DNA of 64,000 bases, taken from assembly GCF_044324875.1 (NCBI RefSeq), contig NZ_CP172185.1, one strand, 5' to 3'. Source of the stretch: Escherichia coli (GTDB lineage Bacteria; Pseudomonadota; Gammaproteobacteria; Enterobacterales; Enterobacteriaceae). Position 1 is the first letter of the stretch, and every line of letters begins with the position of its first letter. Under the pieces are notes generated by a model. It was not told the DNA's origin and did no database searches. It saw only the letters and a list, made by a program, of their open reading frames with translations. The position numbers and the translations under genes are program-made. Of the stretch, positions 1,484 through 63,156 are shown piece after piece.

Positions 1484-2772
1484 TGGCAGGGTTAAATAAA
1501 TATCAGGCGTATCCGGAGTATAGGGATTCTGGGGTGGAGTGGATCGATGCAATCCCTTTTCATTGGGAAGTGCTACCAACATTTTCTCTATGTGAGGCAT
1601 CGACGAAGAAAAATATCGATGGAGCAGAAAACAATGTGCTCTCATTGAGTTATGGAAAAATTATTCCCAGAGATATAGAAACAAACTTCGGGCTTTTACC
1701 AGAGTCATTTAATACTTATCAAATCGTTGAAAATGGCGATATTATTTTAAGATTAACTGATCTACAAAATGATAAAAACAGTTTACGCGTAGGATTAGTC
1801 AAACAAAAAGGGATTATTACATCTGCATATTTAAAACTCAATTCACAAGGAAGTATGCTATCCGAATATTTATATCGCCTACTTCATTCATATGATACGA
1901 CTAAAGTTTTTTATGGCATGGGAGGAGGGCTGAGACAATCAATGAAATTTGAGGATTTCAGAAGATTGCCCTTACTGCTTCCATCGAAAAACGAACAGGG
2001 AAAAATAATTGATTTCCTCGACCACGAAACAGCAAAAATCGATAACCTGATCGAAAAACAACAACAACTTATTGAACTACTGAAAGAAAAACGTCAGGCA
2101 GTGATTAGCCATGCGGTGACCAAAGGGCTAAATCCTGATGTGCCGATGAAAGATTCTGGGGTTGAGTGGTTGGGTGAAGTTCCGAAACACTGGCACATAT
2201 GCAAGTTAAAATGGTTTGCTAATTTGAAAAGTGGTGATTTTATAACCAGCAATTCAATAGAACCAGAAGGAAACTATCCTGTTTATGGTGGAAATGGATT
2301 AAGAGGATATTATTCTCATTTTACACACAATGGTGAATATGTTCTTATTGGTAGACAAGGTGCTCTTTGCGGAAATATAAATTACGCAATTGGAAAATTT
2401 TGGGCTTCAGAACATGCTGTTGTTGTCACCCCAAACGAAAGAGCTGTTACAATATGGTTAGGAGAATTATTAAGAATAATGAACTTAAACCAATATTCAG
2501 TTTCTGCTGCACAACCGGGGCTTGCGGTTGAAAGAATTACTGATTTATATATTCCAATCCCACCATATCAAGAGCAAATAAATATCGGAACTTATATATC
2601 TAAATATATTTCTCTAGATAAAAAATTGATTGAGCATAGTACAGATAATATTGAACTCCTAAAAGAACGCCGCACCGCCCTTATCTCCGCCGCCGTCACC
2701 GGCAAAATCGACCTACGCAACTGGACCGCGCCCATCCCCGAAGCGGAAACACCCACGGAGGTCAGCGCATGA
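1483..2772 (+). CDS. hsdS: Type I R-M specificity subunit (HsdS), two target-recognition domains
   Basis: 429 aa; conserved central and C-terminal HsdS helices (KIDNLIEKQQQLIELLKEKRQAVISHAVTKG; RRTALISAAVTGKID); TRD motifs PVYGGNG...GALCGN; TRD-coding parts are AT-rich relative to the conserved parts; start overlaps hsdM stop, stop overlaps hsdR start (ATGA). Confidence 0.85.
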   Translation: MAGLNKYQAYPEYRDSGVEWIDAIPFHWEVLPTFSLCEASTKKNIDGAENNVLSLSYGKIIPRDIETNFGLLPESFNTYQIVENGDIILRLTDLQNDKNSLRVGLVKQKGIITSAYLKLNSQGSMLSEYLYRLLHSYDTTKVFYGMGGGLRQSMKFEDFRRLPLLLPSKNEQGKIIDFLDHETAKIDNLIEKQQQLIELLKEKRQAVISHAVTKGLNPDVPMKDSGVEWLGEVPKHWHICKLKWFANLKSGDFITSNSIEPEGNYPVYGGNGLRGYYSHFTHNGEYVLIGRQGALCGNINYAIGKFWASEHAVVVTPNERAVTIWLGELLRIMNLNQYSVSAAQPGLAVERITDLYIPIPPYQEQINIGTYISKYISLDKKLIEHSTDNIELLKERRTALISAAVTGKIDLRNWTAPIPEAETPTEVSA

Positions 2773-5700
2773 GCAACGACATAACAAAAGAGATCAACCT
2801 GCAAAACGACATCATCGCGCAGATGGCAGAAAAAGGCTGGATTGTCGGCAAAGGTGACGGCTACGACCGGGAACGAGCACTATACGCACAGGATACCTTA
2901 AACTTCGTACAAACCACCCAACCGCAAGAGTGGGAAAAATTCGCCCGCGTTTACCCCAACGACACCGAGCGCCATTTCCTCGACGCACTGGTCGCGCAGC
3001 TTAAAAAAGCCGACAGCAACGCCACCGATATTCAGTCGCGCACCAGGGGTACGCTCGGCGTACTTCGCCACGGCCTGAAAATCCGCAATGCCCGTTTTTC
3101 GCTGTGCCAGTTTAAACCGGAACATAATCTCAACCCGGAAACGCTGGCGCGCTATCAGCAGAATATCTGCCGCATTGTGCCGGAACTGATCTACAGCCCT
3201 TATGCCTCAAATAGCGTCTTTGCAGAAACGGGCGTGAAAGCCAAAAAATGGCGCATCGACCTGGTGCTGTTTATCAACGGCCTGCCAATTGCCACGCTGG
3301 AGCTGAAATCCGAATTCAAACAGGCGGTGCAGAACGCCATTGCGCAGTATAAAAAAACCCGCCTGCCGAAAGATCCCGCTACCAATAAGCCCGAACCGCT
3401 GCTGACCTTCAAGCGCGGGGCGCTGGTGCATTTTGCCGTCAGCCAGTATGACGTTTATATGACCACCAAACTCGTGGGTGACAGCACCTTCTTCCTGCCG
3501 TTTAACAAAGGCACCAAAGATGGTGGTGCAGGCAATGAGATCCCCGAAGATACCCACCGCTACGCCACCGATTATCTGTGGAATGAAGTACTGCTGCCGG
3601 ACAACTTATTAAAAATCCTCGCCAGTTTTGTCCATTTGCAGATTGAAGAAAAAGAGGAGTGGAACGGGCTGAAAGCGAAGAAAGAGAGCCTGATTTTCCC
3701 GCGCTATCACCAGTGGGATGTAGTCAACAAACTGCTGGAGGCCGCGACGGTCGAAGGCACCGGCCATAAATACCTGATCCAGCACAGCGCAGGTTCCGGA
3801 AAGTCGAACTCCATTGCCTGGACCGCCCACCAGCTTTCTCGTCTGTACGACGCAAACGGGGAAAAACAGTTTCATTCTGTTATCGTGGTGACGGACCGCA
3901 CAGTGCTGGACGACCAGCTTCAGGACGCCATCTGGCAGTTCGAGCACGCCGACGGCGTGGTCGGGCGCATCAATAATAGAGAGGGCGATGGCTCTAAATC
4001 GGAAAAGCTCGCCAACGCGCTGGAAAACTCGCAACCGATTATTATTGTCACCATCCAGACGTTCCCGTTCGTATTGAAAGCTATCGAAAACAGTGTCAGC
4101 CTGAAGCAGCGTAAATATGCGGTGATTGCCGACGAAGCACACTCCTCGCAGAGCGGTTCTACCGCCCGTCAGCTTAAAGAAGTGCTGATGAGCGAAGAGA
4201 TGGATGATGACGTGGTACTGTCGTCAGAAGATATTCTGGATGCGACCATCGCTGCACGGAAAGGCAGCAGTAACCTGAACTACTACGCCTTTACCGCCAC
4301 GCCAAAATCCAAAACCCTGGAACTCTTTGGTCGCTGTCCGCGTCCCGATGAGCCGGCCTCAAAAACCAATAAACCTGAGGCCTTCCACGTCTACTCCATG
4401 CGCCAGGCAATCGAAGAAGGCTTTATCCTCGACGTGCTGAAAAACTACACCAACTACAAAGTGGCGTATCAGTTGCTGCAAAAGCTGGAAGACAAGGACC
4501 GCGAAGTCGACAGCAAAAAGGCAAAGATAAAGCTCAACCAATGGGTGACACTGCACGACCACAACATCTCGCAGAAGGTGAAGGTGATTGTGGAGCACTT
4601 CCGCAAACATGTGATGCACCTGCTTGGCGGCCAGGCTAAAGCGATGGTGGTCACCAGTTCACGCAAAGCCGCTGTGCGCTACAAGCTGGCGTTTGATAAA
4701 TACATTAGCGAGAACAATTACCAGAAAATCAGCGCGATGGTGGCATTTTCCGGGGAAGTTGAATTCCAGGAAGGCGACCATAACAGCCTGGCATTGTTAA
4801 AGCAGAAATTTACTGAAATAAACATGAACCCCGGCCTGAAAGGGCGGGATATGCGCAAAGCCTTCGACAGCGATGATTATCAGGTGATGTTGGTCGCCAA
4901 TAAATTCCAGACCGGTTTTGACCAGCCAAAGCTGTGCGCGATGTACGTGGATAAACCCCTCGGTGGCGTCGAGTGCGTGCAGACACTCTCCCGCCTGAAC
5001 CGCACCTATCCGGGCAAAGCGGAATCGGGCACTTTTGTCCTCGATTTTTATAATGATCCGGACGAGATCCTCGGCGCATTCCAGCCCTATTTCCAGACGG
5101 CGGAACTGACCGATGTCAGCGATCCGCAGCAGGTATTCGATCTGTTTGAAAAACTGCGCGCCACGCAGATTTTTCAGTGGCATGAAGTCGAGCAGTTCTG
5201 CGAGGCGTACTTCATCAAAAATAAATCGAATGCGGCGATCAGTAATATCTGTAAACCGGCGGTCGAACGCTGGAAAAAGCGTTATCTGATGGCAATAGAC
5301 GCCTATTTGACCGCCAAAGAGATGTTCGAGCGCACTAAAAAAACGGGCGATACGGTGTTAATCACCAATGCGGAAAACAGTTTTAAAGCCTGTAAGCAGG
5401 AGAAAGATCGTCTGGAGATTTTCAAGAAAGATCTCGGCAGCTTTGTTCGCTTTTATGAGTTTATGTCGCAAATCGTTGAGTACGATGACAAGGATCTGGA
5501 AAAGCTAAGCCTGTTTGCCCGTCATCTGCGTCCGCTGCTGCATGAGCAACGTCTGGAAGAGGATGAAATTGATCTCAGTAATGTGGAGATGAGTCACTAT
5601 CGTTTATCGAAAATCCATGAGCAAGATTTACGCTTACAGGAAGAAACGTCTGACTATACGCTGGATGCAAGTAATGATATTGGTACGGCAAAAGCGAAAG

Positions 5701-6032
5701 ATAAAAAAGAGGAGTTTTTATCGCAGGTGCTTTCTCGGATGAATGAATTATTCATTAGCGACCATTTGACCGACAAAGATATGATCAGCAATGCTTTTGC
5801 GGTGTATAACAAAATAACTGAAAATGAAAATGTTATGACACAAATTAAAAACAATCCGCCAGAACAAGCGATTCTTGGTGATTTCCTCCAGGCAGTTGAT
5901 AATGCTGTAATGGACAGTAATGACGCTCGGCAAGAATTTATGTTGCAATATTTATCCGATCCAGTTCGGGCAAAGGGCTTTGCTTATCTGATGTTTGATA
6001 TGCTCACGGGGAAAATTGCTTTGCCAACATAA
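2769..6032 (+). CDS. hsdR: Type I R-M restriction subunit (HsdR), nuclease + SF2 helicase
   Basis: 1087 aa; N-terminal PD-(D/E)xK-like nuclease region (ATLELKSE), Walker A SAGSGKSN, DEAH box VIADEAHSSQ; ATGA overlap with hsdS. Confidence 0.9.
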   Translation: MSNDITKEINLQNDIIAQMAEKGWIVGKGDGYDRERALYAQDTLNFVQTTQPQEWEKFARVYPNDTERHFLDALVAQLKKADSNATDIQSRTRGTLGVLRHGLKIRNARFSLCQFKPEHNLNPETLARYQQNICRIVPELIYSPYASNSVFAETGVKAKKWRIDLVLFINGLPIATLELKSEFKQAVQNAIAQYKKTRLPKDPATNKPEPLLTFKRGALVHFAVSQYDVYMTTKLVGDSTFFLPFNKGTKDGGAGNEIPEDTHRYATDYLWNEVLLPDNLLKILASFVHLQIEEKEEWNGLKAKKESLIFPRYHQWDVVNKLLEAATVEGTGHKYLIQHSAGSGKSNSIAWTAHQLSRLYDANGEKQFHSVIVVTDRTVLDDQLQDAIWQFEHADGVVGRINNREGDGSKSEKLANALENSQPIIIVTIQTFPFVLKAIENSVSLKQRKYAVIADEAHSSQSGSTARQLKEVLMSEEMDDDVVLSSEDILDATIAARKGSSNLNYYAFTATPKSKTLELFGRCPRPDEPASKTNKPEAFHVYSMRQAIEEGFILDVLKNYTNYKVAYQLLQKLEDKDREVDSKKAKIKLNQWVTLHDHNISQKVKVIVEHFRKHVMHLLGGQAKAMVVTSSRKAAVRYKLAFDKYISENNYQKISAMVAFSGEVEFQEGDHNSLALLKQKFTEINMNPGLKGRDMRKAFDSDDYQVMLVANKFQTGFDQPKLCAMYVDKPLGGVECVQTLSRLNRTYPGKAESGTFVLDFYNDPDEILGAFQPYFQTAELTDVSDPQQVFDLFEKLRATQIFQWHEVEQFCEAYFIKNKSNAAISNICKPAVERWKKRYLMAIDAYLTAKEMFERTKKTGDTVLITNAENSFKACKQEKDRLEIFKKDLGSFVRFYEFMSQIVEYDDKDLEKLSLFARHLRPLLHEQRLEEDEIDLSNVEMSHYRLSKIHEQDLRLQEETSDYTLDASNDIGTAKAKDKKEEFLSQVLSRMNELFISDHLTDKDMISNAFAVYNKITENENVMTQIKNNPPEQAILGDFLQAVDNAVMDSNDARQEFMLQYLSDPVRAKGFAYLMFDMLTGKIALPT

Positions 6033-9964: not shown

Positions 9965-10430
9965 GGCGATCCGTCACCTGTTGATAAGATGGCCCGACTT
10001 TAGCGACTAACAAAACCATTCTCACCCGGCAATTTCCCGTTCCCCGAGGCGCTTTCCAGGCTATTTTTGTTCTTCTGCAAACGATACATTTTTCCGGAAA
10101 CAGGCTCGCGTTTTACATGTCCTGTACCCGGCAGATATTCCTCTTTCCACCGCGCTCTTTTGATTAACCGCAAATTTTAATTACACTTAAGGTGTATATT
10201 TTCTATGCAACCCATCAATTCAAGAGGTGTAATGTGCTGATGACTATTTGTAATCGTTATACATTCTGACCAGAACTCAGAAGGTATTTCTCTGTCTGTA
10301 TAAGCACAGGCAGTGTGGTTGATTACATGAAATTCAGTACATTTGTCCTTCTCGCCTGCCTTTCGTCATTACCGACGGTATTGAATTTCGTTTTCCCCAT
10401 TGGGGTTCTCCGGACAAGGAGTTGTTTGTT

Positions 10431-51372: not shown

Positions 51373-53106
51373 ATGGAAATCATGTTACCAAAAAACACCT
51401 TATATGATAGAGAGCAAAATATCTTTTTTGAAAAGGTTACGGCCTTAATTGGAGAAAATGGTGCTGGTAAATCCTCGATTTTACAATCCGTATTTATTAA
51501 CTGTTTAACAAAAAAATATCTACCAGAAACAAAGGTTGTTTGTTTTTCTTCTGGACAAAATGAGAAATACTCAACGTACTTCTCTGATTATCTTTCTCAT
51601 GAAAGGCAAGCAAATAGAGGTCTTAGCTTAGATTGTTGTTATTACGATAAATCATGGTCAAAGTTACTAATATTCATATCCACAATTTGTAAATCAAATG
51701 GTCTTGTTAGAAATTTTTTATGTGAGAAAGGCTATATTGATGTATCAGATGATAAAAATGATGATATATCAAGCAAGCTTACATTGACGGTCCGAGTAAA
51801 TTCGGCTTACGTTAATCGAGTAAAAATGGCATTAGCACAAGAAGAACAAGGTATTGAAAATACTTTAAGGTATTCAGCTTATCATAGGACTTTAGAAAGT
51901 TTCATTAATAATATTGTTAATGCTGATTATGATTTCGAGTCTCCACTTGAAGCTCAAGAGATCTTGCTAACTCATTCAAATTTTTTCAATCCATCATTTG
52001 AGGAAGGAGAAGATTCCTTTTTTGATCCTATCATAACATTTTTCACTCAAGCAGCAGATAATGATTACTTTATAATAAAACCATCATTACAGCTAGAGTT
52101 TAAAAATAATATCGAACTGAATGATATTAGTGATGGGGAATATCAAGTACTCTTTTTATACTCTTTGCTTGATATTTTTGATAGTCCTAATACTTTATTC
52201 TTATTAGATGAGATAGATTCCCATTTACATTACAAGAATATTGAGCTCTTATGGCATCGACTACATAGTATTAATGGTTATGCGATAACAACCACCCATC
52301 TATTAGACTCAATTACAGCTACTGATAATGATTTTAAAAACTTAAAGATTGTTGATAAAGGAAAAATAAAAGAAGATGATAAAATAAAAACTATAATAGA
52401 ACGTTTATCTGTCTTGACAAGAATATCAGACGTACAGTTCGAAGTGTGTCGTAAACTAGAAAACATTGTATTGATGGATGATTATAATGATTGGACTATT
52501 TTTTATGCCTTAGCAAAGAAAAAAGGACTTGATGTATCAAAGTTAGATGGCCTCCATGCAATAAAACAGTCCTCTGGTTACGATAATTTAAATCAAGAGT
52601 TCGCAAAACCAAAAATAGAGTGGATTAATTCGCTTTTAAATGTAAATACTGATAAAAAAGTCAAAAAAATATTCATGATCTGCGACAAAGATGAGGCTCC
52701 AATTACCTATCAGAAAGATGGAGTTCAAGTCAATGGAAGTGAATGTTCAAAACATATAGCGAAGTTAGAAAATAAAAACAAAAATAAAATATATCTCCTT
52801 GTCTGGAAAAGAAGAGAAATAAAAAACTACTTATTATCTTATACGGCATTGTCTCATCATGGATTTATCGGGCAAATAAACAATGGTGATCTGCCGGCTA
52901 ACAGTTATTTAAAAGAAAACGATCCTGGAGATAATTCAGCAATTAGCCGGCTTAACGTAAAACATTGCATCACAAAAATAATTGATTCTGATGGTATAGG
53001 ATTAGATATATCAAAACTTTACTCATATATAGAACTTATACCACCTGCTGAGATCAGTGAAGATATAGTGAATATGTACAATTTTTTGGTGGAGAAATTA
53101 AAATGA
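51373..53106 (+). CDS. ABC-type (SMC/RecF/OLD-like) ATPase with C-terminal Toprim/DUF4435-like putative nuclease domain
   Basis: 577 aa; Walker A GENGAGKSS, signature-like SDGEYQ, Walker B LFLLDEIDSHLH, H-loop TTTH; C-terminal acidic motifs (VLMDDYND, ICDKDE, KRREIKNYLL) resembling OLD/DUF4435 Toprim; very AT-rich; stop overlaps start of next gene (ATGA). Confidence 0.75.
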   Translation: MEIMLPKNTLYDREQNIFFEKVTALIGENGAGKSSILQSVFINCLTKKYLPETKVVCFSSGQNEKYSTYFSDYLSHERQANRGLSLDCCYYDKSWSKLLIFISTICKSNGLVRNFLCEKGYIDVSDDKNDDISSKLTLTVRVNSAYVNRVKMALAQEEQGIENTLRYSAYHRTLESFINNIVNADYDFESPLEAQEILLTHSNFFNPSFEEGEDSFFDPIITFFTQAADNDYFIIKPSLQLEFKNNIELNDISDGEYQVLFLYSLLDIFDSPNTLFLLDEIDSHLHYKNIELLWHRLHSINGYAITTTHLLDSITATDNDFKNLKIVDKGKIKEDDKIKTIIERLSVLTRISDVQFEVCRKLENIVLMDDYNDWTIFYALAKKKGLDVSKLDGLHAIKQSSGYDNLNQEFAKPKIEWINSLLNVNTDKKVKKIFMICDKDEAPITYQKDGVQVNGSECSKHIAKLENKNKNKIYLLVWKRREIKNYLLSYTALSHHGFIGQINNGDLPANSYLKENDPGDNSAISRLNVKHCITKIIDSDGIGLDISKLYSYIELIPPAEISEDIVNMYNFLVEKLK

Positions 53107-55004
53107 ACACCTCTTTATTTGAAGATCTACTTACACTAATCAAGAAAAAGAGTTCGATAAGAAATACAGAACAAGCAGTAGAGCTAATTTCATTATTTAT
53201 TTTTTTACATTATATAAAATTATATTTTTATGAAAATGATAAAAGATTCTCAGATATAAAAAACATATCAAGCAACAACATTAATGAAATTAAATATTAT
53301 TACCAGCAACTATATGAAAGCTTTATTTTATCGATAGATATAAAAAATATAAACCACGACATGCTTGAAAATCTCAGGAGCAAGATAGGTTTTTTAATTA
53401 ATAACATCAATAACCATGAAATAATCAAATATATAGATTATTCTCTTTCGCATATACATTCACTTACAGAGTTCTATCAATATGCAAATTCTTATCAATC
53501 TTTAATTCTTAGGATGGTTAATGAATCGGGTCGTTCAGGGGAATATGTTACTCCATCTGCTTTAGTTCAGCTCATGGTTGAAATGTTATCACCTACAGAT
53601 GGCACATCAATCTACGACCCAGCATGTGGAACTGGGGGTTTATTAATAGAGTCAGCACGATATATTAAAGGCAACAGTTTAAACAAAAACTTTAATTATT
53701 CCCTTATTGGTAATGACACATCATCATTTGCCTGTCTAATCTCAATTGTTAACCTTTTAATCAATAAAGAATTTAACTTTGAAATAATACTAAAAGATAG
53801 CTTAGATATAAATTATAAGAATAAAAAATATGACTTTGTTTTAACTAACCCACCATTTGGGAAAAAGAGCGGTTGGGATAATATTCATATTGACACACAT
53901 TATAAAGGACCTAATCTAGACTATTACTTCCTGGAGCATGTTATTGACTCTCTCGCTGTTAATGGCAAAGCAGCCATAATATTACCAGAGCGTTTTTTAT
54001 ATGATGTGAGTAAAGAGTGCATCACTCTTAAAGATAAGATCTTCCAAAATTATAATTTAGATTGTATTTTATCTATACCGTCAGGTGCATTGCTTCCTTA
54101 CACTGCAGTAAAATTATGTATTCTTTTTATAAGTAATTCTGGCCCAACAGATAGAATATTTTTCTACAATTTAAATAATGGTAAAAAATACTCACGTACA
54201 AATACTATAAAATTCGATGATTTTATAGATTTTTTAGAGTCAGCAAAAAATAGAACAATAACTGAACACTCCTGGATTATCAATATTAGTGATACACCTT
54301 CATCTTATAACTTACTCTTAAAAGATAAAGAGCGAAACTCATATGAGTTTCTTAGTGATTCTATAGTTAACATTGAACAGACAATACGTAATAATGAATT
54401 GTTACTAACCGAGTTGTCTTTATTAAGAGAAAAAATAGAGATCTTAGAGTCAACAATAAAAAATCATTCGCATGAATATGAATTTGAGAGACTTAAAGTT
54501 GGAAATATTGCATTAGTAAAATCCGGAAATTTATTACAAAAAAATAGACTATTATCCACTGGGCCAATTCCTGTATATGGTGGGAATGGAGTTATTGGAT
54601 ATAATTATGAGGCAATGGAAAATGGTGAAAATATTATTATTGGTAAGGTCGGAGCTCTTTGCGGAAACGTTCGGTATGTTCAAGGTGATATTTGGGTGAC
54701 AAATAACTCATTAATTATTAAGAATTATTTACCAAATAAAGTTTTAACACCCTACCTTGCAAAGTTATTATCTACTTTAAACTTAAGAAAGCTCGCCGTT
54801 GGTACCGCTCAACAATATTTAACCACAACACAAATAAAAAATGTAGAAATTAACATTCCACCTTTAACGACCCAGCATAAATTAAATATGTGGCTTGATG
54901 AGTTAGATAATACCCTTGAACAATATAATAAGCTCATTGAAAAAATAATGAATGATAAGCGAGAACTTAAAGAGAATTTGTATAAAGGTCTTTTAATAGA
55001 ATAG
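53103..55004 (+). CDS. Fused N6-adenine DNA methyltransferase + single target-recognition domain (HsdM-HsdS-like fusion)
   Basis: 633 aa; GEYVTP and YDPACGTGGLL (SAM binding), NPPFG (catalytic motif IV); C-terminal 170 aa has the HsdS TRD signature PVYGGNGVIGY...GKVGALCGNVRYV plus a conserved coiled helix; very AT-rich. Confidence 0.8.
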   Translation: MNTSLFEDLLTLIKKKSSIRNTEQAVELISLFIFLHYIKLYFYENDKRFSDIKNISSNNINEIKYYYQQLYESFILSIDIKNINHDMLENLRSKIGFLINNINNHEIIKYIDYSLSHIHSLTEFYQYANSYQSLILRMVNESGRSGEYVTPSALVQLMVEMLSPTDGTSIYDPACGTGGLLIESARYIKGNSLNKNFNYSLIGNDTSSFACLISIVNLLINKEFNFEIILKDSLDINYKNKKYDFVLTNPPFGKKSGWDNIHIDTHYKGPNLDYYFLEHVIDSLAVNGKAAIILPERFLYDVSKECITLKDKIFQNYNLDCILSIPSGALLPYTAVKLCILFISNSGPTDRIFFYNLNNGKKYSRTNTIKFDDFIDFLESAKNRTITEHSWIINISDTPSSYNLLLKDKERNSYEFLSDSIVNIEQTIRNNELLLTELSLLREKIEILESTIKNHSHEYEFERLKVGNIALVKSGNLLQKNRLLSTGPIPVYGGNGVIGYNYEAMENGENIIIGKVGALCGNVRYVQGDIWVTNNSLIIKNYLPNKVLTPYLAKLLSTLNLRKLAVGTAQQYLTTTQIKNVEINIPPLTTQHKLNMWLDELDNTLEQYNKLIEKIMNDKRELKENLYKGLLIE

Positions 55005-55012
55005 ATCACAAT

Positions 55013-55039
55013 AGCAGGGTGTCCATAAAACACCCTGCT
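55013..55039. terminator. Hairpin between convergent genes (agcagggtg-N9-caccctgct)
   Basis: 9-bp inverted repeat in the 80-bp gap between the MTase-fusion stop and the hsdR stop. Confidence 0.45.
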
Positions 55040-55084
55040 ACTGGTTGCAAGTAAGTTGCAATATCTGTACTGCTGAAGCTACTA

Positions 55085-58000
55085 TTAATAATGCTCCTCA
55101 ATATACCCATACGCCTTCTGGAACAACTCTTTATCTTTCCCTAGTCCAAACTGGGCCAAGGTCAGTAAAAGCGCCTTTTGGATTTCGCGCGGGCCACTGT
55201 TGGAATTTTGCCAGCCATCAAAGCGGGTAGCTTTCACAATTTTATCAATTTGCTCTACAACATCACCGATTAACTTAGGGGTAGTTTCCGGACGTGTTTC
55301 GAGGAAAAGCTTAGTCAACGCCTGTTTATTATCAGCTTCAGTTACTGGGCGCTCGCCCGTTTCGCGCTCGGCTTGAACGGTATCTTTCGCTGCATCCAAC
55401 AGGCCTTTCAACCAGTCAATGGCCTTGATAACACCAGCTTCATAGTCCTGACGCAGTTTTTCAAGGCGCTCGCCCAATGCCACAAATTTAGGATCATGAC
55501 TGCCGCGCAAACGTCCCATAAGATCAATCTCCAGGCGTTTGGCACGTTGTTCCTGCTCTTTAGCGGTCAGGGTAAAAATAGCGTGCTCGTCCATAACCAA
55601 CTCGTCAATATCATCGCGAATACGATTGATATCAGTATGCTCATGGATCATCTTGATTGTTTCGGGGCCAAGGGCAGCCCAAACAAGCGCACCTGTCTGC
55701 CCTACCGGACGCACCGATTCATAAATTTGCGCCAGCCATTTATAGTCCTGACGATAAGAGGTCAAAAAAGGATCTGGGTTGATAGCTGACCATAACTTGG
55801 ATAACACACCAAAGCTGGCAGCGAATTCATCGCGTTTCTCGTTGGTCGGCAGGCATTCCTGCGCGGCCATAATACCTTCAAAACCAGCTATGGACCGATC
55901 CACACCAGGGAAGAAGGACAAACATTTATTCAGTTGTAACGGCAATAGCTCTTTAAATGCCTCAATTCCCTCTACAACTCCTTCAATTTCTTCAGGGTTA
56001 TAGGCCAGAGCGGTACGCAGATTTTCGAAAACGCCGAGGTAGTCGATAATTAATCCCATGTCCTTGCGTACAGTATCGGTTTCGTACAACCGGTTGGTTC
56101 GGCACATGGCCTGAAGAAGAGTATGATCGCGTAGAGGCTTATCGAGGTACATGCAGTAGCAAATCGGGGCATCAAAGCCCGTAAGCAGCTTGGCGGTTAC
56201 GATAATAAGCTGTAATGGATGTTCAGGATCTTTAAAGCATTCAATCAGATCCTTTTGCACCTGTTCTTCGGCATCAATGTGCTGCCAGCGTTCAAAATCG
56301 ACTTGTTTGACTGGCAGCTCCAACTCATCATGCCATTTAAGCCAATCCTTGTTGAGCTTGTCTTTTTTGCCACCCTCTTCAACTTTAACCGGAGCCTGGT
56401 CAACGTTCATAACCACTTCAACCGCATCAAAACCAAGCTTTTCACCGAGCAAATAATACATCTGCACACAGGCTTCGCGATCGTATACCACAACCATGCC
56501 TTTCATCTTTTTCGGCATAACATGGTTGGTAAAATGCTCAGCAATATCATTACTCACCGCAGCCATACGCCTAGGGGATTTCAGCATGATTGCCAGCTTG
56601 CCTGCACGCCTGGACAATGCTGCTTTTTCTTCTTCATCCAGGTTGTTTTCGGTAGCCAGTTGCTCGAACTCTTCATTGATGGCATCACGATCCACTCGGA
56701 GTTCAGCCAGCCGAGGTTCGAACTTCACCGGGTTAGTTGCGCCATCCCGGATCGACTGCTTATAGCTATAGCGGCTCATATAGCGACCCGGATCTTCTTC
56801 GGCACCGAACAATTTGAACGTATTACGATCAATGCCAGAAATCGGAGTACCTGTCAGGCCATAGAAGTGGGCATTGGGCAACGCCCAGCGCATTTTCTCG
56901 CCTAATCCCCCTTCCTGTGTACGGTGAGCTTCGTCAACCAACACAATGATATTGTCACGGTTGTTCAGGCCATTAGGGTTGCTATCGTCAATTTCGATAT
57001 CTTTAAATTTAAAGATGGTGGTGATTAAAATGCCACGGCTGTCTTGTTCAATGTATTCACCCAGCTTTTTGCAGCTTTGCACTTTAATCAGATTCTTAAC
57101 GTCGGCTCCACCAAAGGTCTCGTTAATTTGGCTGTCCAGATCTCGCCGGTCCACAACGATAAGTACCGTCGGGTTTTTTAACGCATTATCGGCACGTAGC
57201 ATTTTGGCGGCGTAAAGCATCAACAAGGATTTACCCGATCCCTGGAAATGCCAAATAAGACCTTTTTTTGGATAGCCTCTGCGAACACGCTCAACGATTT
57301 GTTTTGCTGCTTCAAATTGCGGATAACGCGGCAAGATTTTAACGCGTTTAGGTGGAGTATTTTTGCCCGTTTTGACGGTTGAAAATAATGCGAAAGATTC
57401 CAGTAACTGCAATAAGGTTTGCGGATTTAACAAACTCTCACAGCTATTGAGTACCGATGCTAATCCCGGCAGAATCTCATCACGAAGCTCAGTATTATGC
57501 CAGGGTCCCCAGTCTTTAACTCGGGCATTAATGGCACCATAGGCAAAGGTTTTTCCTTCGCTGGCAAAGCACAGCAAGTTAGGTACAAAGAAAGATTCAA
57601 CATTTTTCCAGTAGTACTTTTTGCCACCCATGAAATCGGCAGCACCGTCTTGCCAGGTCACGCTGGGGCGTGTTGCGGTTTTAACTTCGCCCACTACTAG
57701 CGGTATGCCGTTCACATAAAGAACAATATCAAAATAGACTTCAGTGGCCGCGATATAGCGAACCTGCTGCGCCACCACAAAGTGGTTGTTCTCTATATTG
57801 TCAAAATCAATCAGATTGATGGTGATATGGTCGCCATTCTTACCAAAAGGCAAGGTTTTGTCGGCCATCAACCATTCCTGGAAGTTTTCATTGGCCTTTA
57901 CCAAGCCGGTATGGCGGGCTTCTAAAACCACTCCTCGCAGTTTGTAAATGACCTCATCGGCATAGTCAGGCTGTCTGCCGATATCAGGGTTTAACGAACA

Positions 58001-58147
58001 AAGCGCGTCTTTTAGCCACTCATCAACGAAGATATCCTGCGCTTGTTTAGGCAGGTTTTCACCGTGGCAGTAAGTCCACTTGACTCCGCTTAAACCTTTT
58101 AAACGGTCGATAATTCCATTTTCTGTGACGGTTTGTTCGTTAAACAT
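55085..58147 (-). CDS. hsdR: Type I R-M restriction subunit (HsdR)
   Basis: 1020 aa; nuclease motif GEVKTA, Walker A QGSGKSLLM, DEAH box VDEAHRTQ. Confidence 0.9.
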   Translation of the reverse strand: MFNEQTVTENGIIDRLKGLSGVKWTYCHGENLPKQAQDIFVDEWLKDALCSLNPDIGRQPDYADEVIYKLRGVVLEARHTGLVKANENFQEWLMADKTLPFGKNGDHITINLIDFDNIENNHFVVAQQVRYIAATEVYFDIVLYVNGIPLVVGEVKTATRPSVTWQDGAADFMGGKKYYWKNVESFFVPNLLCFASEGKTFAYGAINARVKDWGPWHNTELRDEILPGLASVLNSCESLLNPQTLLQLLESFALFSTVKTGKNTPPKRVKILPRYPQFEAAKQIVERVRRGYPKKGLIWHFQGSGKSLLMLYAAKMLRADNALKNPTVLIVVDRRDLDSQINETFGGADVKNLIKVQSCKKLGEYIEQDSRGILITTIFKFKDIEIDDSNPNGLNNRDNIIVLVDEAHRTQEGGLGEKMRWALPNAHFYGLTGTPISGIDRNTFKLFGAEEDPGRYMSRYSYKQSIRDGATNPVKFEPRLAELRVDRDAINEEFEQLATENNLDEEEKAALSRRAGKLAIMLKSPRRMAAVSNDIAEHFTNHVMPKKMKGMVVVYDREACVQMYYLLGEKLGFDAVEVVMNVDQAPVKVEEGGKKDKLNKDWLKWHDELELPVKQVDFERWQHIDAEEQVQKDLIECFKDPEHPLQLIIVTAKLLTGFDAPICYCMYLDKPLRDHTLLQAMCRTNRLYETDTVRKDMGLIIDYLGVFENLRTALAYNPEEIEGVVEGIEAFKELLPLQLNKCLSFFPGVDRSIAGFEGIMAAQECLPTNEKRDEFAASFGVLSKLWSAINPDPFLTSYRQDYKWLAQIYESVRPVGQTGALVWAALGPETIKMIHEHTDINRIRDDIDELVMDEHAIFTLTAKEQEQRAKRLEIDLMGRLRGSHDPKFVALGERLEKLRQDYEAGVIKAIDWLKGLLDAAKDTVQAERETGERPVTEADNKQALTKLFLETRPETTPKLIGDVVEQIDKIVKATRFDGWQNSNSGPREIQKALLLTLAQFGLGKDKELFQKAYGYIEEHY

Positions 58148-58151
58148 ATAG

Positions 58152-59306
58152 TCAAACTCCTAGAAGCTCATATATTAATGCTTGTCTAAGATTAAAATAA
58201 TGTTCTTTTTTATCTCTCAGCACCTTCAATATTTTCTCGAGCGATTCCAATTTTTTTACTAAAATATCTGAGTCAGTAAATAATTTATTATGAATGAAGA
58301 TATCATCAAAAACTCTTACTGTTACTCTTTGCCTACCTGAAGTGCCTTCCATGTGATGAAGAGCATAATGCCTAAATTTCTTTGTTTTGATTATGTAATA
58401 ACCAAGTTTCTTTAGAAAATGATCTTCAAATTTTGATCTCATCACTATAAACTCAGTGGATCCCACAGCTATACTCTCTTCTGCAAGAAAATCAACAAAT
58501 GCTGCCTTACCATTTTCAAAACAAGGTGTGATTCTAGCCAAAAGGATATCATCTTTTCTAAATTTCATACCAGAAGATTTTCCTGACTTAGTTTCTCCTT
58601 TATAGTCTATATATGGAAGTTCAACATCTAAAGATGCCATATCAACATATGGTATTATTTCATCCACTGACCCAATCTTTGGATTAATTAAAAAAGAATC
58701 ACTTAATGAACTCCAGTCATTCTTTTTCCCAGCTGATGTTGTCGCCAGATAAATACCTACTTCAGCATCTATAACATCCTGATATAACTTTCTTACCGAT
58801 AATATAGTTTCATTAAGATGCATATAGCATTCATGGAATTTGTCAAGAATAACTAAGGCACTATTTTGTTTTTCTCTATCGAGAATATTAAATTTAAAGC
58901 TTACAACATCCTTCCATCTAATATGCTTATTAGTTGAACCAATAGTATTTTTTAACGTATGCTCAGCAAAACTTTCAGATTGAAAGATATATGGAAGCAA
59001 TCGACTTTCAAAACCATGATATTGCTTTGGCGTACATACAATAACCTTCTCACCACAATATCCTTCTCTATCAGCTATCGCGACTTTTCTTAACTGCGGA
59101 TTTCTAGTTAGATAAAGTATGTCTCCTGGGCTAAATTTCTTCCCAAAAGTTGGCCCCATATCATCAGGGGCGATTCCGTAGCGAGAGAAAAATATTTCAC
59201 AATTATCAAAGTCTTCTCCTCTTACACAATATTTAACATTAGGATCTAAATTATTCTTCTCCCATATGTTTTTTTCTTTTACTAAGTCAGAAAGAGTAAT
59301 CTTCAT
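58152..59306 (-). CDS. hsdS: Type I R-M specificity subunit (HsdS)
   Basis: 384 aa; TRD motif RITPCFENGKAAFV and TSGRQRV; AT-rich; start overlaps stop of upstream hsdM paralogue (ATGA). Confidence 0.85.
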   Translation of the reverse strand: MKITLSDLVKEKNIWEKNNLDPNVKYCVRGEDFDNCEIFFSRYGIAPDDMGPTFGKKFSPGDILYLTRNPQLRKVAIADREGYCGEKVIVCTPKQYHGFESRLLPYIFQSESFAEHTLKNTIGSTNKHIRWKDVVSFKFNILDREKQNSALVILDKFHECYMHLNETILSVRKLYQDVIDAEVGIYLATTSAGKKNDWSSLSDSFLINPKIGSVDEIIPYVDMASLDVELPYIDYKGETKSGKSSGMKFRKDDILLARITPCFENGKAAFVDFLAEESIAVGSTEFIVMRSKFEDHFLKKLGYYIIKTKKFRHYALHHMEGTSGRQRVTVRVFDDIFIHNKLFTDSDILVKKLESLEKILKVLRDKKEHYFNLRQALIYELLGV

Positions 59307-60766
59307 ATCTTTCCTCCATTAAAAAAGTAAGAAGAGTTCATATTCAATTCTTTTCTAAACGATTGCCATTTACTTATCTCCCTTGAGAGATTTAAATCTT
59401 TAAATTCTTTTTCTATATACACAGGAACATTTAGATTAAAATCGTTATCTTCGACTTCCTCGATAGAGGCTATATACGTAGTAATATTAGAGACATCCTT
59501 CAAACTAATGTAAGAGTTATAGATATTCATTATATTAATATCATTTAAATAAGCATGATTCCTAGTGGTAATAAGTTCATCATAGGCATTTATAAATAAT
59601 ATTTTCCCTTTTAGCTCAGTTCGTTTATTGCAATTCAACAAAATAATACATGCCGGCATAGGTGAATTATAAAACAATCCAGGGCCAAGACTAATTACAC
59701 ATTCAATAATATCTGTTTGAATAATTTTTTCTCTGAGCTGTTTCTCACTTTCTCTGAAGAGAACTCCATTTGGCCAGAGCATAGCTGCGCGACCAGTATC
59801 AGGCTTCAGGCTTTTAATTATATGGGTATAAAACGCATAATCAGCACAGCCCTGCGGTGGTACACCATAAAGATTACGACCATACGGATCAGCGGCAAAC
59901 TTGTCACGATTCCATTTCTTAATGGAGTACGGTGGGTTAGCAAAAATCACATCAAACTGCTTGAGCCGATCGTTTTCAATAAACTTTGGTTCAGCCAGAG
60001 TATCACCGCGCAGCACATCAAATTCTTCAATATCGTGCAGGAACATATTCATACGAGCAATAGCGGAAGTCAGCAGGTTCACTTCCTGGCCATAAAGGTG
60101 CACAGAGCGCCACTCTTCTCCTCTTGCACGAAGATCCATCACTGCATTTAGCAACATCCCTCCAGTGCCACACGTTGGATCATAGGCTGTTTCACCCGGT
60201 TTTAAGCCCATAATGCGCGTCATTAAATGCACGACTGTTCGGTTGGTGTAGAACTCTGCTGCCGTATGACCGGAATCATCAGCGAACTTTTTAATCAGGT
60301 ATTCGTAGGCTTCACCAAGATCATCCTGGGCGACAGATTTAATGCCGAGCGGAATTTTACTGAAATGTTCAATCAGATCAGCCAGCAGATGATCGGGAAG
60401 GCGCTCTTTATTGGTCCACTGTGCATCACCGAAGACGCCATGTAAACGCGGGTTATTGGCTTCAATTAGTCGAAGCGCATTCTGGATCGCTTCACCAATG
60501 TTTTTACTGGTATTGCGTACCTTTTCCCAACTGGCTTCAGAGGGAATATTGAAACGGTGAAACATCGGCATGGCGGCATATTCAGCATCACCTTCATGGA
60601 GTTCCAGCGCTTCGTTATATTCTTCCAGATAGACATCTGACAGGCGTTTGTAAAACAGCAACGGGAAGATATACTGCTTGTAGTCTGATGCGTCAATTTG
60701 GCCACGAAGAAATTCGGCGGCTCCCCAGAGCAGCTCTTCCAGCTTTTTATTACTCATAGTACTCAT
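59303..60766 (-). CDS. hsdM: Type I R-M methyltransferase subunit, paralogue 2 (divergent HsdM)
   Basis: 487 aa; YDPTCGTGGML, NPPYS; EFYTNR replaces the usual EFYTPR; 3' third is AT-rich; ATGA overlap with paralogue 1 stop. Confidence 0.85.
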   Translation of the reverse strand: MSTMSNKKLEELLWGAAEFLRGQIDASDYKQYIFPLLFYKRLSDVYLEEYNEALELHEGDAEYAAMPMFHRFNIPSEASWEKVRNTSKNIGEAIQNALRLIEANNPRLHGVFGDAQWTNKERLPDHLLADLIEHFSKIPLGIKSVAQDDLGEAYEYLIKKFADDSGHTAAEFYTNRTVVHLMTRIMGLKPGETAYDPTCGTGGMLLNAVMDLRARGEEWRSVHLYGQEVNLLTSAIARMNMFLHDIEEFDVLRGDTLAEPKFIENDRLKQFDVIFANPPYSIKKWNRDKFAADPYGRNLYGVPPQGCADYAFYTHIIKSLKPDTGRAAMLWPNGVLFRESEKQLREKIIQTDIIECVISLGPGLFYNSPMPACIILLNCNKRTELKGKILFINAYDELITTRNHAYLNDINIMNIYNSYISLKDVSNITTYIASIEEVEDNDFNLNVPVYIEKEFKDLNLSREISKWQSFRKELNMNSSYFFNGGKI

Positions 60767-62262
60767 ACCTCGAACCCTTCTTTGATAAGCAGGGCCTCCA
60801 GCTCCTCTTCTGCTTTTTCCAGCTCAGCCAGCTTCCGTTGAAAATCTTTGAGCGCTTCTTCCACAGTAATGGTTTCTTCTTCGAGTGGCTTTTGCACATA
60901 ACGAGCAATATTTAGATTGAAGTCATTTTCTTCAATCTCCTTCAGAGGAACCCAGCGTGCAACGCCTTCGATTTCTTTTGCATCTGGCCCTTGTTGCGCC
61001 TGGTCATGATAGATTTGGTATATTTCATCGGCCTGCTTGTTGGACAGCGTATTCTGCGCACGCCCCTTGGTATAGATTTCTTCAGCATTGATGATCAATA
61101 CATGATCTTTATGCGCTGCCGGACGTGATTTACGCAACACCAAAATACACGCAGGAATCCCAGTCCCATAGAACAGGTTGGAAGCAACACCAATAATCGC
61201 CACAATGCGATTCTCTTGCAGTAATTTGGTTCGAATTGCCCCCTCTGCGCCGCCACGAAACAGCACACCATGAGGTAATACGACAGCCATACGTCCATTG
61301 TCGTTAAGTGAAGCAAACATATGCTGCACCCAGGCAAAATCACCATTTGTTTTAGGCGCCAGGCCATATCGCTTACGGCCATAGGGATCGTTCGACCACA
61401 GATCGTATCCCCATTCTTTCAAGCTAAACGGTGGGTTGGCAACAACGCAGTCAAAGGTTTCTAAACGATCGCTTTTTAAAAATTTAGGTTCGCGTAACGT
61501 ATCCCCTCGGACAATATCGAAATCTTCCTGTCCATGCAGGAACAGATTCATACGCGCAATAGCTTCCGTCGTTAAGTTCTTTTCCTGACCCTTGATTTTT
61601 AGTAAACGCGGATCACCACCATTTTCTTTTACATGGTGGATGGTCTCAAGCAGCATACCACCGGTACCACAGGCGGGATCGTAGACACTCTCACCGGCTT
61701 TTGGATCAAGAATGTTAACCATCAAACGAACGATAGTTCGTGGGGTATAGAACTCACCGGCTTTCTTATTGGCTTTGTCTGCAAAGCGTTTGATCAGATA
61801 CTCGTATGCGCGCCCCATATCATCGTCACGGACACTAGAAACGCCAAGGTTCACCTTATTGAAGTGATTGAGTAACGTAGCCAGTAACTCATCAGAAAGG
61901 CGTTCTTTATTGGTCCAGCTGGCATCGCCAAAAATGCCATGCAGTTTAGGGTTTGCCAGTTCTATACCACGGAAGGACTCTTTTAAAGCCTGACCGATGT
62001 CCTTGGTCTCAGCGAAAACATCGCGCCAGTGGCAATTTTCAGGTATCTGAATACGGTGAAACATCTTGCCCTTGGCAAGCTCTGCATCCCCAATGCTCTC
62101 CATCGCATCGGCAAATTCTTCGTCATACACGTCACAAATGCGCTTGAAGAACAGGATGGGGAAAATGTACGTTTTGTAATCTGACGCATCAATGGGCCCT
62201 GTAATAATATGGGCTGCATGCCATAGATGGGCCTCGAGATCTTTTAGGTTAATCAGTGTCAT
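60763..62262 (-). CDS. hsdM: Type I R-M methyltransferase subunit, paralogue 1 (canonical HsdM)
   Basis: Track ORF 60763..62364; start moved to MTLINLKDLEAHLW (AAGAGA RBS upstream), 499 aa; EFYTPR, YDPACGTGGML, NPPFS. Confidence 0.85.
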   Translation of the reverse strand: MTLINLKDLEAHLWHAAHIITGPIDASDYKTYIFPILFFKRICDVYDEEFADAMESIGDAELAKGKMFHRIQIPENCHWRDVFAETKDIGQALKESFRGIELANPKLHGIFGDASWTNKERLSDELLATLLNHFNKVNLGVSSVRDDDMGRAYEYLIKRFADKANKKAGEFYTPRTIVRLMVNILDPKAGESVYDPACGTGGMLLETIHHVKENGGDPRLLKIKGQEKNLTTEAIARMNLFLHGQEDFDIVRGDTLREPKFLKSDRLETFDCVVANPPFSLKEWGYDLWSNDPYGRKRYGLAPKTNGDFAWVQHMFASLNDNGRMAVVLPHGVLFRGGAEGAIRTKLLQENRIVAIIGVASNLFYGTGIPACILVLRKSRPAAHKDHVLIINAEEIYTKGRAQNTLSNKQADEIYQIYHDQAQQGPDAKEIEGVARWVPLKEIEENDFNLNIARYVQKPLEEETITVEEALKDFQRKLAELEKAEEELEALLIKEGFEV

Positions 62263-62505
62263 TGTTGTCTCTTTTCGATCCTGCAGTGCTTGAACTCTCA
62301 GCAACTCATGGATTTCACAGTAAAAAAGCAAGTAAAGCGATTCCACAACCACCTGAGCGTTCAATATGTATGACGCCTTTACCCAAGTTGCTTAAATCAA
62401 GGAAATTGCCTGAGATAATACTCTGGCATCAGAATGATACCAAGTTGAAGGGCTGATTTCCGCATCAATACCTTGTGGTAATAGGGGATTACTCTTTTAC
62501 CCTTA

Positions 62506-63156
62506 TTGGCGCAAAATGGCGGCATTTCCTCATTTCTCCTTCGGAGCATCTTACGCGCTATAACCACTCTCGTTTTTTCCTATTCCCATGCAGATGAAGC
62601 ACTACGCAATGAACTTGAGAAGCATCTCTCCCCGCTGAAGCGAACCGGGAAGATCACAACATGGCACGATCGCCGCATCGTTCCTGGTCAGGAGTTCGAA
62701 CGTCAGATCGACCACTATTTTTCGCAAGCAGATATCATCCTGATCCTGATCAGCAGTGACTTTATTGCTTCTGATTACTGCTATCAGGTAGAGATGAAAA
62801 ACGCACTGGAACGGCATGACCGGGGCGAGGCGGTGGTCATTCCGGTAATTTTAAGAAACTGTGCATGGCATCAGTTAGAATTCGGCAGCATTATGGCGGC
62901 GACTATCGACGGTAAACCCATCACTAAGTTTGCCACCCACGATGAAGGCTACGTTCAGGTCGTCGAGGCTGTCTCGCGTGCCATTGCCCGGATGGAAGCC
63001 AAAAAACCACAGCAAACCATACATATCCCTTCACCGGCTCCGGCGAATCCGATCTTTCAGGGAGTAGATTCCGTTTTTACACCGTGTTCAAGCAACCTTA
63101 TTCTATCTGTTATAGCCAGGATAATGTTGTTCGAAACAGTATTAACGAAACTCTAA
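62506..63156 (+). CDS. TIR-domain protein (possibly disrupted: non-ATG start, 3' frameshift)
   Basis: TIR core LVFSYSHADEALRNELEKHL...ADIILILISSDFIASDYCYQVEMKNALE...VVIPVIL; only an in-frame TTG is available as start (stop at 62482..62484); reading frame changes near 63090..63150 and continues to 63311. Confidence 0.65.
   Translation: MAQNGGISSFLLRSILRAITTLVFSYSHADEALRNELEKHLSPLKRTGKITTWHDRRIVPGQEFERQIDHYFSQADIILILISSDFIASDYCYQVEMKNALERHDRGEAVVIPVILRNCAWHQLEFGSIMAATIDGKPITKFATHDEGYVQVVEAVSRAIARMEAKKPQQTIHIPSPAPANPIFQGVDSVFTPCSSNLILSVIARIMLFETVLTKL

Follow-up and report, generated by a model that had tools for sequence, protein, structure and literature searches.

Gene organization of the locus

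Four intact open reading frames, hsdM1, hsdM2, hsdS and hsdR (M1, M2, S and R), were found on the minus strand between positions 55085 and 62262 of the window, which is the whole 64,000-nucleotide stretch of Escherichia coli DNA analyzed here (Table 1). The operon sits in an E. coli defence island at tRNA-Leu (leuX). Both M proteins carry complete methyltransferase motifs, EFYTPR/NPPF in M1 and EFYTNR/NPPY in M2, in agreement with the first-pass annotation of this DNA. The RefSeq annotation names both M genes merely 'subunit M'; the protein accessions are WP_000172635.1 for M1, WP_001376687.1 for M2 and WP_000705188.1 for S.

Table 1. Genes and candidate features of the operon, in window coordinates.
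Feature	Position	Strand	Remarks
hsdM1	60763..62262	minus	499 aa from ATG; predicted m6A-type methyltransferase subunit (NPPF, AGEFYTPR)
hsdM2	59303..60766	minus	487 aa; predicted m4C-type methyltransferase subunit (NPPY, AAEFYTNR); 484 aa with RefSeq start at 60757
hsdS	58152..59306	minus	specificity subunit, 384 aa, 32% GC
hsdR	55085..58147	minus	restriction/translocase subunit, 1020 aa
AT-rich swappable specificity cassette	58148..59770	minus	from M2 codon ~330 to M2 end, plus whole S
Promoter-like site upstream of M1	62415..62443	minus	weak; consensus match only, 9/12 matches
Terminator-like hairpin just past hsdR stop	55034..55051	minus	weak; consensus match only
Terminator-like candidate, M1 end, within M1	61212-61195	minus	weak
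Terminator-like candidate, M1 end, upstream of M1	62443-62423	minus	weak

The mechanical open reading frame of M1 reaches back to a TTG at 62364, and the ATG start is supported because M1 of the characterised PacII system opens with the same MTLINLKDLE. With an M2 start at 60766, the M1/M2 junction, GAGGTATGAGTACTATGAGT, contains an ATGA overlap; RefSeq places the start at an ATG 9 nt downstream, which shortens M2 to 484 residues and leaves a 5-nt gap after M1. The overlap reported earlier for this junction thus holds only with the upstream start, since the RefSeq start gives a gap instead. The other two junctions are as first described, with an ATGA overlap, together with a Shine-Dalgarno sequence, between M2 and S (GGAGGAAAGATATGAAG) and a 4-nt gap between S and R (TGA-CTAT-ATG). 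Promoter and terminator scans of the region gave site counts no higher than in shuffles, and the sites listed in Table 1 are weak candidates only.

The base composition of the operon is uneven. M1 and R have a GC content of 46.6% and 46.7% respectively, against 47.7% for the window backbone, so that their earlier description as 'core-like' is roughly right. S is at 32.2%, and the GC content of M2 drops from ~0.45 to ~0.27 past codon ~330, which bears out the AT-richness noted for S and the 3' end of M2.

The two methyltransferase subunits

Alignment of M1 with M2, which the first-pass annotation had proposed, gave 46% identity and 65% positives over 482 aligned residues (E 4e-154). Both proteins are HsdM-like, yet fall just short of the trusted cut-off of the classical hsdM model: the NCBIfam TIGR00497 hsdM equivalog scored 228.1 bits for M1 and 214.4 bits for M2, with a cut-off of 242.75. 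MADS and BREX methylases were rejected as identities for the M proteins, the matches being partial and far below cut-off.

The M proteins were compared with those of PacII from Pseudomonas alcaligenes NEB 585, which has the site C(m4C)C-N5-RTTGY and the structures 7vru and 7vs4 (PMC5100572, PMC9613975). M1 was found to match PacII M1 (PDB 7vru_A) along its full 499 residues with 85% identity (984 bits), against 475 bits for PacII M2 (7vru_B), and M2 to match PacII M2 with 842 bits and 76% identity, against 440 bits for PacII M1. For both proteins, the score against the corresponding PacII subunit is roughly double that against the other PacII M. The two systems have the same subunit set, and M1 and M2 have diverged to a similar extent in both (45% identity in PacII). 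Residues that were functionally tested in PacII are kept in both proteins, namely D25, E170/F171, N276-F279 and R401 in M1, and R29 (R21 here), D33/D36/K38, AAEF, NPPY, the NSPM loop and R410 in M2. When taken per 50-residue block, the identity between M2 and PacII M2 is 78-100% over residues 1-300 (mostly 88-100%) and 31% at the C-terminus. The loop lining the M2 pocket reads NSPMP here and NSPME in PacII (N375-S-P-M-E379), the fifth residue being a proline instead of a glutamate; this variant was absent among the commonest loop forms in 80 species.

M1, the M2 core and R are under strong purifying selection. The dN/dS values were 0.035 for M1, as compared with the most diverged E. coli allele, and 0.027 for R, and the M2 core (codons 1-325) is the most constrained part of the operon with a value of 0.008. 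A regulatory or decoy M subunit, one of the roles first suggested for the second gene, does not agree with two M genes that are both intact and under purifying selection, and a decoy or degraded M gene was rejected on the basis of the intact motifs and dN/dS values of 0.008-0.035. That M2 in particular might be a catalytically inert subunit could be argued from canonical Type I enzymes, which need one M gene, and from PacII M2, which does not bind S when alone (PMC5100572, PMC9613975). However, M2 retains an undamaged motif I (DPTCGTGG) and motif IV (NPPY) along with AAEF and the pocket loop, its core shows the constraint given above, and in the PacII crystal structure the flipped cytosine sits in the pocket of the orthologous M2, which loses m4C when NPPY is mutated (PMC5100572, PMC9613975), all of which make an inert M2 extremely improbable.

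Recurrence in other species and class assignment

The occurrence of the order M1-M2-S-R in other genomes, a further check proposed at the outset, was followed in 80 species fetched via M2, among them Gammaproteobacteria, Bacteroidota, Desulfobacterota, Planctomycetota, Leptospira and others. In 77 of the 80 species, the NPPY M2-type gene is preceded on its own strand by an NPPF M1-type gene, and S and usually R come after it; in the remaining three, the upstream flanks were short (0.4-2.2 kb) and contained no M1-type gene. Two juxtaposed systems were rejected as an explanation of the locus since the same gene order recurs in this way.

The signatures of the two proteins are similarly constant. 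AAEFYTNR and NPPY were observed in all 80 M2-type proteins, and among the 75 M1-type proteins AGEFYTPR occurs in 74 and NPPF in all. It was suggested earlier that the P-to-N change in M2 may affect SAM or DNA handling. An effect on base handling points in the right direction, as this position adjoins the Phe that forms part of the aromatic cage around the flipped base (PMC9613975); the change is a family-wide signature.

Type I systems with two methyltransferases, one of which marks adenine and the other cytosine, were described as a class by Morgan et al. 2016 (PMC5100572), and the structure of the PacII M1M2S-DNA complex was solved by Zhu et al. 2022 (PMC9613975, PDB 7vru). Members of the class have two hsdM genes with 45-55% identity in the order NPPF-M, NPPY-M, S and R (PMC5100572). 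M1 (NPPF) produces m6A and M2 (NPPY) produces m4C within an M1M2S heterotrimer, the assignment being based on catalytic mutants and single-subunit expression, and systems of the class restrict lambda-vir (PMC5100572, PMC9613975). The following defining features were found in the operon: an M1/M2 identity of 46%, an upstream NPPF M1, a downstream NPPY M2 overlapping the S start, the M2-type residues R29, the Phe of AAEF and NSPM, and the order M1, M2, S and R on one strand. Canonical Type I systems (families IA-IE) use a single hsdM for both M subunits, and the two distinct, conserved M genes place the operon outside these families. Very probably, then, the operon represents a complete Type I restriction-modification system of the known m4C/m6A two-methyltransferase subclass, its methylation chemistry being predicted by homology.

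The heteromeric methylase core, one of the possibilities raised in the first-pass annotation, matches the M1M2S class by PacII orthology, gene order and signatures. The contrast that the annotation drew between two hsdM genes and established knowledge does not hold, as this is a published and structurally solved subclass (PMC5100572, PMC9613975); the architecture, chemistry and structure having appeared in 2016 and 2022, the locus matters little for discovery. A literature search for a published E. coli example, motif or methylome returned the two class papers only.

Among the named systems, Sen483I from Salmonella enterica SL483 (site CCC-N5-RTAG) belongs to the same class and is likewise enterobacterial; the operon is likened to it by published description. 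Sen483I and the other eight systems of Morgan et al. follow the same M1(NPPF)-M2(NPPY)-S-R logic, and the distance separating their methylated bases obeys a 7-bp rule. PacII differs from the operon in that the four genes are contiguous here as M1-M2-S-R, and in its S subunit, which is almost unrelated outside of the first target recognition domain (TRD1). EcoR124I (family IC) and EcoKI (family IA) share the R2M2S-type machinery, the HsdR motor, a bipartite S with two TRDs and the four-helix bundle formed by S helices and M tails, whereas they have one hsdM gene, two identical M subunits and m6A on both strands. Their M proteins are more distant, with 197 bits to M1 and 169 bits to M2 for EcoR124, and 55-94 bits for EcoKI.

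Specificity and restriction subunits

Both remaining subunits were recognised by profile searches, R by TIGR00348 (477.9 bits, cut-off 284.55) and PADLOC REase_I (E 2.7e-110), and S by PADLOC Specificity_I (E 1e-30). S of PacII is the only solved relative of S, the match extending through TRD1 alone (residues 29-180, E 2.4e-9) with 29% identity, and the two TRD1 are homologous. We infer that the N-terminal TRD1 of S is the cytosine half-site domain and TRD2 the adenine half-site domain. A BLAST search with TRD1 in the 80 two-methylase loci gave 79 matches to S open reading frames, nearly all in the N-terminal TRD, with E-values down to 6e-23 and 30-37% identity for the ten best matches, while TRD2 gave no match to the S open reading frames of the same loci. 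TRD1 would thus fit the conserved cytosine-recognising TRD family of the class, in which TRD2 is hypervariable, at the level of the family only (29-37% identity). Out of the three residues that contact the CCC bases in PacII, R75 is kept, and N and K replace R76 and H94 respectively; with one of the three conserved, a prediction of the m4C half-site from the PacII contacts was dropped. The 'PLPPL' turn motifs described by Morgan et al. between the TRDs and helices are degenerate in S.

By homology to PacII and nine other characterised systems, the C-terminal tail of M1 would bind S, after which M2 would be recruited to form an M1-M2-S heterotrimer that clamps the bipartite site. TRD1 would then offer the cytosine to M2 (NPPY) for N4-methylcytosine formation on one strand, and TRD2 the adenine to M1 (NPPF) for N6-methyladenine formation on the other. 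Unmodified sites, with HsdR bound, would be subject to ATP-driven translocation and cleavage.

The specificity cassette and its alleles

When compared by BLASTN with five other E. coli alleles, only 55000-58146/58148 and 59587/59756-62500 were found to align. The 3' edge of the intervening segment is the junction of the S stop and the R start (58146-58148), and at the opposite edge nucleotide identity and GC content both fall at M2 codon ~330. Between the E. coli alleles, S is 22-30% identical, M2 80%, and M1 and R 97-100% (R 98.4-99.9%); M2 outside the AT-rich part is likewise conserved to 97-100%. The AT-rich part of the operon is therefore an allelic cassette, consisting of the C-terminal ~150 residues of M2 and S, that is exchanged among E. 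coli strains against a fixed background of M1, M2 core and R.

A segmental replacement, as suggested in the first-pass annotation, hence stands for the AT-rich M2 3' end and S but fails as the origin of the two M genes. The breakpoint inside M2 and the mosaic composition might be read as signs that two M genes are the product of such a replacement, or that M1 is what remains of another Type I system that lay next to this one and has degraded. Either origin is hardly credible, as the breakpoint falls within M2, at codon ~330, and not between the M genes, M1 precedes M2 on the same strand in several phyla, M1 is intact and constrained, and PacII requires M1 for assembly (PMC5100572, PMC9613975). 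Neither M open reading frame carries an inactivating lesion, and M1 belongs to the operon across the species compared, contrary to what the first-pass annotation named as grounds for abandoning its reading.

Over its last ~150 residues, M2 reaches no more than ~40-55% identity with any other M2 that was found, and its best match in the loci of the 80 species is at ~40%. A protein search with M2 330-487 for the donor of the cassette gave 54 candidates, which are fragments of the same allele (98%) or relatives with 29-55% identity, and no donor among them. Known m4C half-sites are limited to three, CCC, GCC and TCY (PMC5100572), and the TRD1 of the present allele was assigned to none of them. 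We tentatively consider, at somewhat less than even odds, that the cassette, with this M2 tail and a very divergent S, came from outside the sampled diversity and may specify an m4C half-site beyond these three.

The tail of M1 is invariant across the E. coli alleles while S changes completely, and the cassette is assumed to be compatible with this unchanged tail. Were it not, the allele would be a mismatched hybrid in which the imported cassette assembles poorly with the resident M1, leaving the enzyme partly or wholly inactive, for instance with m6A only, as PacII M1 and S alone yield partial m6A (PMC5100572, PMC9613975). The distance of the cassette from all sampled relatives, the altered TRD1 contact residues, the degenerate turn motifs and the constancy of the M1 tail against a wholly changed S are all in line with such a hybrid. 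We nevertheless regard it as improbable, since all four open reading frames are intact and the same M1 is also combined with widely differing S proteins in other E. coli alleles. An identical M2 protein was found in 277 contig-collection blocks, and 20 complete genomes carry the allele. In addition, a cell with an intact R would not survive a failure of modification, so that long-term persistence alongside an intact R argues for working modification.

The E. coli population data further suggest that, in the two-methylase class, specificity is exchanged as a unit made up of the M2 tail together with S, the M1 tail being a generic anchor on which unrelated S helices are tolerated. This adds a small point on specificity exchange in heteromeric Type I enzymes, in that the M2 tail and S are swapped between a fixed M1, M2 core and R. 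Two M genes followed by S and R were observed at the same place in 109 of 5426 complete E. coli genomes, 20 of the 109 having the present S allele; O17_K12a and DG342-2 are examples of strains with this allele. In about 2% of complete E. coli genomes, a Type I site is thus predicted to bear N4-methylcytosine, and as an annotation this predicted m4C is relevant to the interpretation of methylomes and to transformation barriers.

Operon organization

The four minus-strand reading frames of the operon, hsdM1 (M1), hsdM2 (M2), hsdS (S) and hsdR (R), were found where the first-pass annotation had placed them. Its description of the M2/S junction as an ATGA overlap and of the S/R junction as a 4-nt gap also holds. 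The ATGA overlap that it gave for M1/M2 is present in the sequence but not with the RefSeq start of M2, which is the next ATG, 9 nt downstream, and leaves a 5-nt gap. Pairwise alignment shows M1 and M2 to be full-length paralogues with 46% identity, carrying the motifs already noted (EFYTPR and NPPF in M1, EFYTNR and NPPY in M2). The described compositional split was likewise recovered: GC content is 46.6% in M1, 46.7% in R and 32.2% in S, while that of M2 is about 0.45 up to codon ~330 and 0.27 thereafter. A scan for promoter-like and terminator-like sites gave weak candidates at the operon ends.

Annotated features of the two-methylase operon and its surroundings
Feature	Coordinates	Strand	Description
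M1	60763-62262	-	ORF, 499 aa counted from the ATG
M2	59303-60766	-	ORF, 487 aa
M2 pocket loop	59650-59670	-	Residues ~366-372
S	58152-59306	-	ORF, 384 aa
R	55085-58147	-	ORF, 1020 aa
Two-gene module	51373-55004	+	Very AT-rich (29.8% GC); convergent with hsdR
TIR-domain protein	62506-63156	+	216 aa; PADLOC ThsB, E 3e-89; divergent from M1
Mrr-like restriction endonuclease, C-terminal part	63496-64000	-	PADLOC PDC-S02, Mrr_cat; runs past window edge
Second Type I system	1-6032	+	Canonical single-M; classical hsd/yjiS position; M cut by window start
Second system, S	1483-2772	+	
Second system, R	2769-6032	+	

Assignment to the m4C/m6A Type I class

M1 and M2 matched the same PADLOC Type I methylase models, and R exceeded the NCBIfam hsdR cut-off. 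The decisive result for identifying the two methylases, at the level of sequence, is their match to PDB 7vru, the M1M2S methyltransferase of PacII (from Pseudomonas alcaligenes NEB 585) on DNA (Zhu et al. 2022, PMC9613975). M1 aligned to chain A over all 499 residues (984 bits, 85% identity) and M2 to chain B (842 bits), each scoring about half as much against the opposite chain. The m4C/m6A Type I subclass, with PacII as its founding member, already counted more than 300 systems in REBASE in 2016 (Morgan et al. 2016, PMC5100572). The two M genes of such a system are similar without being the same (45-55% identity). The upstream one, M1, carries NPPF and makes m6A; the downstream one, M2, adjoins S, carries NPPY and makes m4C; R follows downstream (PMC5100572). 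The window's operon shows every sequence-level feature of this subclass. We therefore assign it, by homology, to a class already described in the literature and solved structurally, and the heteromeric methylase core first proposed among the explanations for the paired genes is correct. A literature search for an E. coli representative of the class, or for the motif of one, returned no paper; the window carries a new and so far uncharacterised allele of an established type.

Both subunits keep the residues whose importance has been demonstrated in PacII, namely D25, E170/F171, NPPF and R401 in M1, and R29 (R21 here), D33/D36/K38, the AAEF phenylalanine, NPPY, the NSPM pocket loop and R410 in M2. 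The loop lies within the imported cassette described below. Its sequence is NSPMP in the window, against NSPME in PacII; nearly all of 80 species loci likewise have NSPME or something close to it.

By analogy with PacII and its relatives, for which the steps have been shown, M1 would bind S first and recruit M2, and the resulting M1-M2-S heterotrimer would clamp a bipartite site. The N-terminal target recognition domain of S (TRD1) would deliver a cytosine into the M2 pocket to give m4C, and the second (TRD2) would offer an adenine to M1 to give m6A. Joined by HsdR, the complex would restrict unmodified DNA.

Distribution and selection

A scan with an M2 alignment, using one genome per species, yielded the 80 loci in 80 species, with Gammaproteobacteria, Bacteroidota, Desulfobacterota, Planctomycetota, Leptospira, Patescibacteria and Chloroflexi included. 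The M1-M2-S-R order, whose recurrence had been put forward as a check, was indeed found elsewhere: in 77 loci an NPPF M1-type gene lies upstream of an NPPY M2-type gene in the same orientation, with S and, in most cases, R after them. For the remaining three, the short upstream flanks (0.4-2.2 kb) showed no M1-type gene. AAEFYTNR and NPPY occur in all 80 M2-type proteins, AGEFYTPR in 74 of 75 M1-type proteins and NPPF in all 75, so the P-to-N difference is characteristic of the subunit that methylates cytosine.

The suggestion that one M might be a decoy, or decayed, was rejected because both genes are under strong constraint, with dN/dS against the most diverged E. coli allele of 0.035 for M1 and 0.008 for M2 codons 1-325 (R, 0.027).

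Cassette exchange in E. coli

In its E. coli host the operon lies inside a defence island at tRNA-Leu (leuX), flanked by ahr/yjgR on one side and nanS/fim on the other. An M(x2)-S-R operon occupies this island in 109 of 5426 complete E. coli genomes, 20 of which carry the window's allele; most of the others aligned in two pieces covering ~77-78% of the query. Against five other alleles, identity is 97.4-99.8% for M1 and 98.4-99.9% for R, but only 80% for M2 and 22-30% for S. DNA similarity ends at the S stop/R start (58146-58148) and restarts at 59587-59756, and M2 codon ~330 is a break in both nucleotide identity and GC. Conserved flanks with breaks at these two points identify the AT-rich stretch as a cassette for specificity, composed of S and the last ~150 residues of M2, which recombination exchanges between the flanks. 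Since M tails and S helices build a four-helix bundle in the PacII structure (PMC9613975), it is plausible that the M2 tail was transferred together with S; the M1 tail seems to have stayed invariant despite the complete change of S. No cassette donor was found by a protein search with the M2 C-terminus or among C-terminal matches in the 80 species loci.

In a more diverged copy, L018 (E. coli Z1322HEC0001), the stretch 10166-11904 holds a 76-aa helix-turn-helix gene (231 nt) that directly precedes and overlaps M1, and a tyrosine integrase also ahead of M1, adjoining tRNA-Leu. This arrangement may be an ancestral version that was mobile and had a controller protein. The O17_K12a genome, with an operon 100% identical to that of the window, retains near the tRNA only a remnant of an integrase, past the window's end.

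Specificity subunit

TRD1 of the window gave 79 BLAST matches to S reading frames in the 80 loci, nearly all at the N-terminal TRD (30-37% identity for the ten best), whereas TRD2 gave none among the same frames. The result is consistent with published observations that the m4C TRD is conserved while the m6A TRD is hypervariable (PMC5100572). In two of the other E. coli alleles, L014 and L018, TRD1 is 71-76% identical to that of S.PacII and keeps the CCC contact residues; the window's TRD1 keeps only one of the three.

Neighbouring genes

The module next to R encodes two proteins, an ABC/AAA_21-type ATPase of 577 aa and an N6_Mtase of 633 aa that is fused to a single Methylase_S TRD; no nuclease gene was recognised in it. 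In E. coli it is present alongside most copies of the Type I operon, though not in the L018 island version, and in some strains its ATPase is split (426 + 85 aa). The TIR-domain protein is 216, 237 or 327 aa long depending on the strain, and no ThsA-like gene was seen near it. In related genomes the island continues up to tRNA-Leu with genes for a helicase-PLD protein of 1171 aa and an HNH nuclease. In the second Type I system, the S region is unlike that of the closest reference genome.
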